DNA of 64,000 nucleotides, taken from NCBI RefSeq assembly GCF_057098645.1, contig NZ_CM169472.1. The stretch is one strand, 5' to 3'. Position 1 is the first letter of the stretch; each line of letters begins with the position of its first letter. Made by a program: the position numbers. Positions 15,001 to 18,000 of this stretch are shown one piece after another.

Positions 15001-18000
15001 ATTTTTATCCGTGATGGAAAAAACGTCTATCGTGCTCCCTCGCGGTCAACTGACACACGTTCTGCGCCATACGTTTGCGGCGCACTTCATGATGTCGGGT
15101 GGAAATATCCTGGCCTTACAAAAAATTCTCGGGCATCACGATATAAAAATGACTATGCGTTACGCACATCTGGCACCGGATCACCTGGAAACTGCATTAC
15201 GGTTTAATCCGCTGGCAACACTACCAACATCAATAGCAAGTTTTTGAAAATGCGTATTTTGCCCTGTTGAGCTAATATTCTTTTTTTTCACATGGAGCAC
15301 TATCAATGAATAAGTTTCAGCATCAGGGAGCGGAATTGCGCAACAGAGCCAAAGAATTGGCTTTATCCGTACTTAAAACTCACCCAGATGCCCAAAAAAA
15401 CGGCAACGGCGTTAAGCAAGCTGAGGTATTTCGTCTAAGCGGCCTCGATTGGGGAGAAAAACGGAAAGCAACAAGTTCGAACCAACAATATTGGGTTGTT
15501 GCACTATTGCGTGAACTAGAAGAGGAGGGGTTAGTCGAACAGATTGAAGATAGAGGCCCCTGGCGTCTAAGGTAAAACAAGTGGCGACAAAGTGGCGGCA
15601 GCGGTTGGCATTACCCCGTAATAACCACCACTGACCACCAACCCAACTTATTGTTTTTACTCTAACTTATTGTTTTCATTAACCCATTTACATAAATGAC
15701 CGTTTTGTTATCTCCCTTTGCCACGGCCCGGCGGCTTTTCTGGCGCTTCGCCACGGCGATAACCCACTGAATGGTTATTCCATTTGCGCATTCCCAGACG
15801 CCGCAGACAAACAAACGCCAGAGATAGGCTATATGCCGGGTCATCTCACCTGGTACTTCGGCGAAGAGCTGAAGAAAATGGGCATGAACATTATTAATGA
15901 CGACATCACCGGGCGAGTACATAAGGACCGTAAAGTTCTCACCGGCGACAGTCCTTTCGCAGCGAATGCGTTGGGTAAACTGGCGGCGCAGGAAATGCTG
16001 GCAGCTTACGCGGGTTAATCCCTGTTACGTTTTAATGTAAGCGCATAATCAATCGCAGCCGCGTTAGTATTCACGACGTGGCTGCGTTTTTTCACGGTTA
16101 ATTTATGGCGTACTGAAGCCCTATGTTAATTTCTTTGCGGCAACGTAATCCGGAACACATTATGCTTATTGAGATAGTGATACGTAGCACTTCCCCCATG
16201 TAATTCGGCAATCGCTTTGACTAAAGAAAGGCCTAGTCCCTGACCTACGGAATGACGCGAATTATCTCCCCGCCAAAATCTACGGAAGAGTTTTTCAGGC
16301 TCATTAATTTTCGTTCCAGGGCTGGCGATATCAATATTAAGAGATCCGTTAGTATCAAGAAAACTGGTTATATGAATGCGCGATTTTTCTGGTGAATATC
16401 GAATGGCGTTAACAATAAGATTCGATAACATTCGTTGCAGTAAAATTTTATCCGCATAAATTTGCTGATTGCACTCGACCTTAAAGCAAATCTCTTTCTC
16501 GTCTGAAAGGTATTCAAGATAGTCCAACAAATTTTCGACTTCCTTATTGAGAGAAAGCGATTCCAGTTTCACCAAAACATTATTTTTATCTGCCCTGGCA
16601 AGAAACAGTATGTTCTCTGTTAACCGCGAAATATTTTCCAGCTCTTCAATGTTTCCGGCAATTGTTTTTTGATATTCAGCGATACTTCTGGTTTGACTGA
16701 GCGTAACCTGATTCTGACCCAGTAATGCATTAATTGGCGTTCTAAGTTCATGAGCGAGATCGTCAGCAAACTGACTTAGACGCTCAAAATCTTTGACTAA
16801 AGCATGATGCATTTTATTCAACGCCTGCCCAAGCGGTTTTAGTTCTCTCGGTAATGCGCTAACCTCAACAGGCTCTCGGCTATCGTTATAATTCAGCGCT
16901 TCCGTTACACCACTCAACTTTTTGATCTCTCGTAACCCCGTTCGGATTAACAGCGGACTTAATACTGAGCACAGTATAATGGCGACAATGCAAATTATAA
17001 TGCTATTGATTTTATACTGTTCAAGCATGTTATGTCTGGCTGAAGCCAATTTAGCCACAGTAACCGTTAATGATGGCGAAACTTCATCAATATTAATTCG
17101 TAAAGCATCTATCTCTGTATCATTAATAATGCTTCTGTAAATGCCAGCTGCACTGATTGTCTCACTAGCAGGTATGTTATTTAACATGCCATCACTGACA
17201 TTTGTCCGGTTAACAATTTTATTGATGCTATCACCATGAATGATCAAGATATCCTGACTAACATCCATCATCCGGTTAAAGTACACAGGTAACGTATCTG
17301 GATTTACCCCATCAATTAACAACTGCTTGATCTGTGCTGTCCGGTTAATGAGTGTTGTATCATCGCGCCATTTCAACTCACTTGCCAGGCCATTATAGAG
17401 AGTCCAGACAATTCCAGCGCCAGCAACAGACAGCAGCAATATAAAAAGCAAGGTTAAACGGACGGTTATAGACAATCTTTTCATTATTTTTTTACCGCTA
17501 CGAACGAATATCCCATCCCACGGATTGTGGCAATTAGCTTTTCAGGAAAAGGATCATCAACTTTTGCGCGGAGCCTGCGAATGGCGACATCCACCGTATT
17601 GGTATCACTATCAAAGTTGATTCCCCAAATTTCACTCGCAATAACCGTTCTGGGTATAATTTCGCCAGCTCTGGAGGCCAGTAGCCAAAGTAACTGAAAC
17701 TCCTTGCGCGTCAGTGTAATACTGATATTGTCCCTGCTCACACTTTGACTAACAGAGTCCATTCTTAAGCCGCTGATTTCTAATATTGAATTCAAAGCGT
17801 GATGTTGCCTTAATTGTGCCCGAACCCTTGCCAGCAACTCAGAAAATGAAAAAGGTTTTACCAGATAATCATTTGCTCCACTGTCCAGCCCTCTGACTCT
17901 GTCATCGACAGAATCCCTTGCAGTAAGGCAAATAACAGGGGTTTGCTTTGCCGTTCTTAACGTTTGTAAGATCTGCCAGCCATCCATACCCGGAAGCATA

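Follow-up and report, generated by a model that had tools for sequence, protein, structure and literature searches.

A PhiECO1-type P2/186-like prophage that probably integrated at a secondary attachment site inside hchA of an O145:H28-type Escherichia coli

Prophages of the PhiECO1/Fels-2 group are known from the 3' end of the small RNA (sRNA) gene rybB, which they occupy in Escherichia coli HS, ATCC 8739, CFT073, W, B and Crooks and in S. Typhi CT18. The HS prophage was named PhiECO1 (PMC3448106), and a list of P2-like insertion sites for E. coli W, B and Crooks includes rybB (PMC3032704). Here we describe a phage of this group at a different place, the gene hchA, which encodes Hsp31 (glyoxalase III). 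The locus lies in a stretch of 64,000 nucleotides (nt), one strand of contig NZ_CM169472.1 (assembly GCF_057098645.1), which we call the window throughout and which ends leftward inside the terminase gene of the phage. The integrase, arm repeats, core, gene order and 186-type cI/apl/cII switch of this phage are the same as those of the prophages at rybB. The outcome for the host differs. At the rybB site the core brought in by the phage restores the sRNA terminator, so that nothing is lost, whereas an insertion in hchA restores nothing and destroys the gene. We regard it as very probable that this PhiECO1-type P2/186-like phage was integrated by its own tyrosine integrase at a pseudo-attB inside hchA and that the gene was split in the process. 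An origin of the hchA truncation by deletion is unlikely.

Integration at sites that resemble attB only in part has precedents. Barreiro and Haggard-Ljungquist reportedly described secondary sites of P2 in E. coli in 1992 (locH, locII, locIII and others). As in hchA, an integrase of the P2 family acts there on chromosomal sites that are only partly identical to the attP core, although integrase specificity and core are different. P2 turns to such sites if its preferred one is missing, taken or not suitable. Shimada, Weisberg and Gottesman are said to have found in 1972 that lambda lysogens at secondary attachment sites inactivate genes. These lysogens share with the hchA case a conservative, reciprocal insertion at a look-alike site, a disrupted gene and the importance of identity near the cleavage point. 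However, they were laboratory selections in hosts deleted for attB, whereas the hchA case is natural and its likely trigger would be a natural single-base variant of attB. The Listeria prophage phi10403S in comK is reportedly a case of active lysogeny. There, too, a prophage interrupts a gene that precise excision would restore, and int and an apl-like gene look intact in the window. Unlike comK, hchA is not known to be controlled in this way and there is no evidence of regulated excision at this gene. The literature that we searched on hchA (yedU) as a prophage insertion site held nothing relevant. We conclude that hchA is a new secondary attachment site, and that the kind of event is already known: an ordinary, strain-specific event and not a new kind of system.

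The junction is described by the following features of the window.

1-15698: int-proximal 15.7 kb of a P2/186-like (PhiECO1/Fels-2 group) prophage, from comparison with the HS prophage and gene content
14216-15247, plus strand: tyrosine integrase of 343 amino acids (aa), with Pfam Int_N and Phage_integrase
15691-15713, plus strand: hybrid att core CATAAATGACCGTTTTGTTATCT, left part attP and right part hchA, from a three-way alignment (window, HS junction, intact hchA) and a register comparison
15694-15698, plus strand: strand-exchange interval AAATG, bounded by the phage-specific T15693 and the hchA-specific A15699
15695-16018, plus strand: hchA 3' fragment, codons N177-G283 and stop, with C185, H186 and D214 and without start codon or promoter

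Over positions 1-15713 the window and the prophage of E. coli HS (L003 15099-2809) agree at 99.0-99.9% identity, two insertion sequence (IS) elements excepted. The gene order runs from the 3' end of the terminase gene through portal, cargo genes, repA, dam, cII, the apl-like gene and cI to int, and this order (int-cI-apl-cII-fil-...-dam-repA-...-portal-terminase), together with the near identity, is that of PhiECO1-type Peduoviridae. Judged by the HS prophage, the remaining ~19.2 kb, from capsid to ogr, should lie to the left of the window start. The integrase (Int) combines Int_N with the catalytic domain, as P2-type integrases do. The identical protein was found in 9103 blocks of public assemblies, the unit in which all exact-protein counts are given here, and 10 of the 10 places shown adjoin rcdA, that is, the canonical rybB site.

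Comparison with this canonical site defines the core. The HS prophage sits between rcdA and ybjL, and its attL and attR have ATGGGTTTTTTGTT in common. K-12 has no prophage there, and its vacant site coincides with the rybB 3' end; the core corresponds to the last 11 nt of the RybB terminator and 3 nt beyond. The arms of relatives were gathered by a scan with a degenerate core pattern, one genome per species, which returned only the canonical-site junctions of these relatives. Fifteen related prophages from Citrobacter, Enterobacter, Raoultella, Silvania and Escherichia all read CATAAATGG(G/T/A)TTTTTTGTTG(C/T)CT on the int side, given also as ...AACCCATTTACATAAATGG(G/T/A)TTTTTTGTTG(C/T)CT. For Klebsiella phage 4LV2017 the annotated attL is AAATGGGTTTTTTGTTGCCT. 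In the window the flank is hchA-hprS and not rcdA, and we are thus dealing with a family member at a non-canonical site.

Alignment of the deduced attP (CATAAATGGGTTTTTTGTTGCCT), the E. coli attB (GGTTGATGGGTTTTTTGTTATCT), intact hchA (CAAAAATGACCGTTTTGTTATCT) and the window (CATAAATGACCGTTTTGTTATCT) revealed where phage and host DNA meet. Similarity to hchA begins at 15691. The original prediction had asked for a comparison with an uninterrupted hchA and, at the other prophage end, for a shared core repeat. From 15691 to 16125 the window differs from the intact gene at a single position, T15693 (A in the intact gene), which is the phage base, and the two partners share the interval AAATG at the crossover. 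Codons 176-183 of hchA read AAAAATGACCGTTTTGTTATCT, in which ATG is followed by four unmatched bases and then TTTTGTTATCT. This pseudo-attB matches attB at 14 of 18 positions, including all 11 on the host side of the crossover (TTTTGTTATCT, 11 consecutive bases from the right half of the E. coli attB); the chance of an 11/11 match in register is 2.4e-7. The phage DNA ends at the crossover of its att core and the host target resembles attB in register. A break at the integrase crossover point beside a look-alike half-site is the signature of integrase-mediated recombination and not of a random deletion.

Insertion inside hchA predicts a second junction, the sequence of which can be derived from the window: the hchA part should end in ...CAATCAAAAATG and continue as GGTTTTTTGTTGCCTGAAATTT into the ogr-side arm. 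The predicted product consists of HchA residues 1-177 with GFFVA added before the stop (...AIKNGFFVA), 182 aa in total. Indeed, exactly this 182-aa protein, with an N-terminal allele of the K-12/O145 type, is on record in 36 blocks (NCBI, Logan, ENA). At the locus in these sister assemblies the genes are ordered dcm, yedJ, drpB, an intact gene for a 357-aa porin, the HchA N-terminal fragment, ogr, D, U and the tape-measure gene (T), and the DNA is exactly as predicted, ...gggcaatcaaaaATGGGTTTTTTGTTGCCTGAAATTTAAGCTG, followed by ogr, D, U and T. The sister assemblies have the same O145:H28-type chromosomal backbone as the window. Compared with RM12581, an O145:H28 strain, their left flank shows 99.97% identity and the right flank of the window 99.87%; the phage part of the sister locus is 99.3% identical to the HS prophage. 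The hchA part of the window and the sister locus (L171) end on the same 5 nt of the intact reference (L185 11787-11791). That both alignments meet on these five bases implies an insertion without loss or gain of host DNA. The predicted reciprocal junction thus exists verbatim in relatives with the same backbone type, from which we conclude that the prophage very probably integrated in hchA and split it. Two origins of the truncation had been left open, integration inside hchA or an integration-associated deletion; the att-core junction, the pseudo-attB and the reciprocal junction favor the first, the far end of this genome being deduced from the sister assemblies.

Among 5426 complete genomes of E. 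coli there was no copy of the int-side junction of the window or of the predicted far junction, and neither had a match among viral contigs or metagenome contigs. An antisense open reading frame (ORF) that spans the window junction has no exact protein match on record. The same holds for a far-junction product with the N-terminus of the FDAARGOS_497 type (GLLTKF), with either tail. A homology search with the fusion protein returned only frameshift variants among the cluster representatives listed.

The course of events was very probably as follows. A phage whose normal attB is the rybB 3' end met the pseudo-attB at codons 176-183 of hchA, and strand exchange within AAATG produced the int-side junction of the window. 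The reciprocal ogr-side junction, present in the sister assemblies, would lie ~19 kb left of the window in this genome, where hchA codons 1-177 should run into phage DNA with a stop after GFFVA. It is expected to read ...GCCGCTTTACAGTGGGCAATCAAAAATGGGTTTTTTGTTGCCTGAAATTTAAGCTG... and to follow drpB and the intact 357-aa porin gene. An IS1 and an IS21-family element would have landed in the prophage later, the latter in repA, and the prophage would then have been locked in place.

The hchA insertion has counterparts elsewhere. The porin gene that directly precedes hchA is interrupted in OkiPb01675 by a prophage whose Int is 99% identical; both junctions were seen, and they are conservative with the exchange at ATGG. 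A different phage of the same Int type occupies the same porin position in 2012C-4502. In IAI39 and CE10 a prophage sits in a LysR gene next to sad, and of its junctions the ogr-side one alone was read, in IAI39. In the ST131 strain 4224 an int-arm match, which is a match only and not a junction that was read, adjoins ompF at an apparently homologous porin position; this match (hit H106) suggests a third use of a porin gene. A product of 33 aa that joins the porin N-terminus to phage sequence is on record in 31 blocks. All of these events resemble the hchA case in Int type, in a crossover at ATG(G) and in a split gene, and for the OkiPb01675 porin it was seen that both halves are kept. Identity of the Int type was measured for OkiPb01675 (99%), and for the others it was assigned from arms and gene order only. 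The sites differ in their likeness to the right half of attB, with 11/11 positions matching in hchA vs 5/13 in the porin gene. Taken together, the window and the other natural secondary-site events place the exchange at the ATG of the core. P2-like phages that target rybB are very common; hchA is added to their known secondary sites, and strand exchange is narrowed to this triplet.

Codon 30 of enterobacterial porin genes is a recurrent secondary site of this integrase type. The yedS-type gene is cut at AEIYNKDG/NK (...AATAAAGATGG/CAATAAAG..., the slash marking the break; L168 1148-1180 and 34670-34700; L170 3608-3723) in two genomes and by two phages.

A reason for the choice of an odd site may lie at rybB itself. 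In RM12581, the complete genome with the closest backbone, the empty rybB site reads GGTTGGTGGG, with an A-to-G change in the crossover triplet (L195 17751-17760), and the same GTGGG was found at the empty rybB site of IAI39 (L197 11690-11700), OkiPb01675 (L199 13495-13505) and 2012C-4502 (L200 3175-3185). In a tally of the rybB attB pattern over the complete genomes the G variant (ggttgGTGGG) was present in 738 of 5415 matching records, counts that are not phylogeny-corrected. Of the complete genomes 1107 are lysogens at rybB, and none of them combines an A-type arm with G at either junction. On this backbone type GTGGG in place of ATGGG would mismatch the phage core in the crossover triplet and would disfavor the primary site. 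The idea fits because lambda-type integrases require identity adjoining the cleavage point, and we consider the A-to-G change the likely reason for the odd site. A broader proposal is offered more tentatively: it is possible, though somewhat doubtful, that the natural attB variant, GTGGG for ATGGG, which alters both the stem of the sRNA terminator and the crossover triplet, shields rybB against A-core phages and diverts them to hchA, porin codon 30 and the LysR gene, with G-core phages having co-evolved. Identity of the crossover triplet would then be a simple rule for when rybB-targeting phages miss their harmless site, and a single host base would decide between harmless and mutagenic lysogeny.

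The strict form of this idea, in which hosts with the G variant are never lysogenized at rybB, is ruled out by PS10-3, a rybB-site lysogen in a G host whose phage core itself carries the G (GATAAGTGGG; L202 5360-5370, 41600-41612). Phage core and host rybB site appear to co-vary in this strain. In strain 4224 the primary rybB site is occupied by a second prophage. We also noted that the rcdA-rybB spacer of RM12581 holds a 0.77-kb island with a serine acetyltransferase gene (L195 16958-17750), which abuts the right half of attB (ATCTAAATCCCC...).

Several points weigh against direct integration in hchA, or against parts of the account given here. The sister assemblies are relatives and not the same genome. 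They do not have the IS insertions, as can be told from their 84-kb contig, DRR634222_18, which extends across the prophage. The far end of this genome itself lies outside the window, and the reciprocal junction is known from 36 blocks of the same backbone type. Directly beside the crossover the pseudo-attB has a mismatch (ACCG vs GGTT), and recombination should be inefficient under the lambda paradigm. The attB-variant idea draws on four backgrounds, of which one stands in for the source strain, and on counts that carry no phylogenetic correction. Finally, two IS copies reside inside the prophage and its left part could have been rearranged later.

One alternative starts from the porin gene. 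The phage would have integrated at the codon 30 pseudo-site, 2.1 kb upstream, and a deletion mediated by Int or by microhomology would then have reached the hchA pseudo-site, with loss of the 3' part of the porin gene and the 5' part of hchA. Use of the porin site by the same Int type in two complete genomes, and the 31 blocks with the 33-aa fusion product, speak for such a start. Moreover, the porin and hchA sites lie just 2.1 kb apart in the same orientation, an odd coincidence if the events were unrelated, and the window junction by itself does not discriminate between the two routes. Against it speak the sister assemblies, which share the backbone type and have the exact reciprocal hchA junction next to a porin gene that is whole (357 aa). 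Direct integration in hchA does occur, and the detour through the porin gene is therefore unnecessary. It would also require an additional rare event, and the two prophages at the porin site differ from the phage of the window in their int-adjacent cargo. We regard this route as very unlikely.

Equally, the phage may have integrated in hchA as we propose, the left part of the prophage or the 5' half of hchA having been lost or moved afterwards by an IS-mediated rearrangement. Two IS elements inside the prophage, with junctions that occur in no other complete genome, do speak for ongoing IS activity in the lineage. Yet both insertions are simple, with intact target duplications and collinear flanks, and the window holds no sign of a rearrangement. 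A later loss of this kind seems quite improbable to us.

Even less can be said for a chromosomal inversion. Recombination between the int-side junction of a rybB-site prophage and an inverted hchA pseudo-site would have flipped ~1.1 Mb across the terminus, and would have left the hchA 5' part beside rcdA and ogr beside rybB. Orientation of int and core relative to the chromosome is indeed opposite to that of the HS prophage at rybB, as an inversion would give, and the local sequence is compatible with it. However, this arrangement was seen in 0 of 5426 complete genomes, the public reciprocal junction joins the hchA 5' part to ogr and not to rcdA, and lambda-type integrases, as is well established, do not normally recombine a bare site with the junction of a prophage. 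We consider an inversion extremely unlikely. A simple deletion that starts from a rybB-site prophage is ruled out, as its orientation would be wrong. An assembly chimera can be dismissed almost entirely: the exact junction is absent from every collection searched, as it would be for an artifact, but phage and hchA share only 5 nt and 11 nt at the junction, which is too short for a repeat-induced misassembly, the break falls at a biologically meaningful crossover, and the reciprocal junction was found independently in 36 blocks.

The phage arm between int and the core holds the following features.

15306-15575, plus strand: ORF of 89 aa in a variable cargo slot between int and the att arm, without Pfam match, present in the HS-type prophage
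15579-15600, plus strand: tandem pair of Int-binding repeats of the arm type (AAGTGGCGACA, AAGTGGCGGCA), which correspond to the 186-type arm consensus in reverse complement
15644-15676, minus strand: aacttattgtttt twice, sites 19 bp apart that resemble those of integration host factor (IHF), one mismatch each to WATCAANNNNTTR

The slot filled by the 89-aa ORF is empty in Klebsiella relatives and in the OkiPb01675 prophage, and some relatives carry an ORF of 161 aa there. The 186-type arm consensus is tgccGCCActt (PMC3448106). The repeats read AAGTGGCG(A/G)CA, match this consensus and are nearly invariant in 17 related prophage arms. Two copies of aacttattgtttt had been noticed before as short direct repeats at the junction. 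They are present exactly twice in the whole window (15645-15657 and 15664-15676); what does not hold is their role as junction or target repeats. A target duplication, core or crossover repeat is ruled out, as the copies lie 18-53 bp inside the phage arm, are kept in the HS prophage at the canonical rybB site and are conserved across genera. With one mismatch to WATCAANNNNTTR taken as the threshold for an IHF-like site, at least two such sites arise in 2.3% of shuffles, and several relatives have a perfect match to the IHF consensus, TAACTTATTGATT. The aacttattgtttt repeats are thus putative IHF sites.

Beyond the junction follows what remains of hchA, with the markers of its chromosomal neighborhood.

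15680-15682, plus strand: TAA in the hchA reading frame, within phage DNA, 433 nt past the int stop
16126-17484, minus strand: hprS, the usual downstream neighbor of hchA and chromosomal flank marker; its exact protein is the O145:H28-type allele

The fragment retains 107 native codons (N177-G283, 15695-16015) and ends at the stop at 16016-16018; the codon for K176 is altered to ATA. These values agree with the earlier description of a 5'-truncated hchA of ~108 codons, behind an in-frame stop ~440 bp beyond int. No part of the 5' half was found anywhere in the window by blastn. After the fragment, hprS, hprR, hiuH and msrP follow in the usual order of the hchA neighborhood. For the hprR ORF (17484-18266) an ATG further upstream gives a length of 260 aa vs 223 aa in RefSeq, and gene callers are divided on this.

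Hsp31 contributes to the detoxification of methylglyoxal and to resistance against acid stress and the stress of stationary phase. In hchA the break falls ten codons ahead of that for the catalytic Cys185. Roles for Cys185-His186 and Asp214 are presumably as in the crystal structures of Hsp31. In the window these residues do not lie on one polypeptide with the N-terminal 175 residues, as residues 1-176 are absent. The fragment scores 198 bits against the NCBIfam HchA equivalog NF003168, with model positions 179-286 only, compared to a cut-off of 365 bits and 526 bits for intact HchA, and does not qualify as a full-length member. The 5' product has none of the catalytic residues; the 3' piece is devoid of residues 1-176 and of an early start, its first possible start being the M at 15833. 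Because of this, Hsp31 would be inactive, as the original prediction had held, unless a second copy of hchA exists; the median in E. coli genomes is one copy. Neither piece could form the whole DJ-1/PfpI fold, and the inactivation holds under integration or deletion alike.

Public data contain many HchA products that are truncated or frameshifted, including one cluster of 272 members with many partial Shigella sonnei entries, and in some assemblies IS1 and IS4-type insertions lie near hchA. An exact look-up of the 61-aa HchA C-terminal ORF likewise returned frameshifted or IS-disrupted hchA. Consequently, loss of hchA is not rare in the E. coli/Shigella group.

Further along the chromosome, after yodB (23575-26630 and on to ~40000), we found effector-type genes. 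An ORF of 189 aa occupies the position of the NleF-type gene of O145:H28 genomes, an NleB/SseK-type gene lies near it, and a lambdoid prophage that is ~99% identical to one in O145:H28 genomes follows. The effector-type genes together with this prophage point to an attaching-and-effacing or Shiga toxin-producing E. coli (STEC)-type host. Knockout of Hsp31 by a prophage that is now immobile may matter for the stress phenotypes of an O145:H28-type lineage with nleF- and nleB-like effector genes.

Two insertions interrupt the prophage itself.

2363-3129: IS1 copy with insA and insB ORFs, inserted in a cargo gene of 463 aa; 9 bp of target (L003 12738-12746) are duplicated
7417-10055, minus strand: IS21-family element (ISSso4-like, istA/istB) in repA, with a 6-bp target duplication

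Their junctions occur in none of the complete E. coli genomes searched, and the two repA fragments produced by the insertion have no exact protein match on record. Since repA is broken by the IS21-family element, the prophage is predicted to be unable to replicate. Excision that restores hchA is conceivable, given that int and the apl-like gene look intact.

The gene of 463 aa that is split by IS1 is hypothetical and belongs to a variable cargo region between the portal gene and dinI, with flanking ORFs at 1580-2308 and 3109-3747. It may be a defense gene, because TIR, PIN or SIR2 genes are found within or close to that region in relatives. At the IS1 end of the query, the best matches listed are ~94% identical, with IS1A/IS1B family annotations. 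Between cI and int there is an ORF of 63 aa (13836-14027), the counterpart of which in relatives is assigned to the YdcA family by precomputed Pfam/RefSeq naming; the window copy has no Pfam match. In other relatives the same slot between cI and int holds KAP NTPase or SNIPE nuclease genes.

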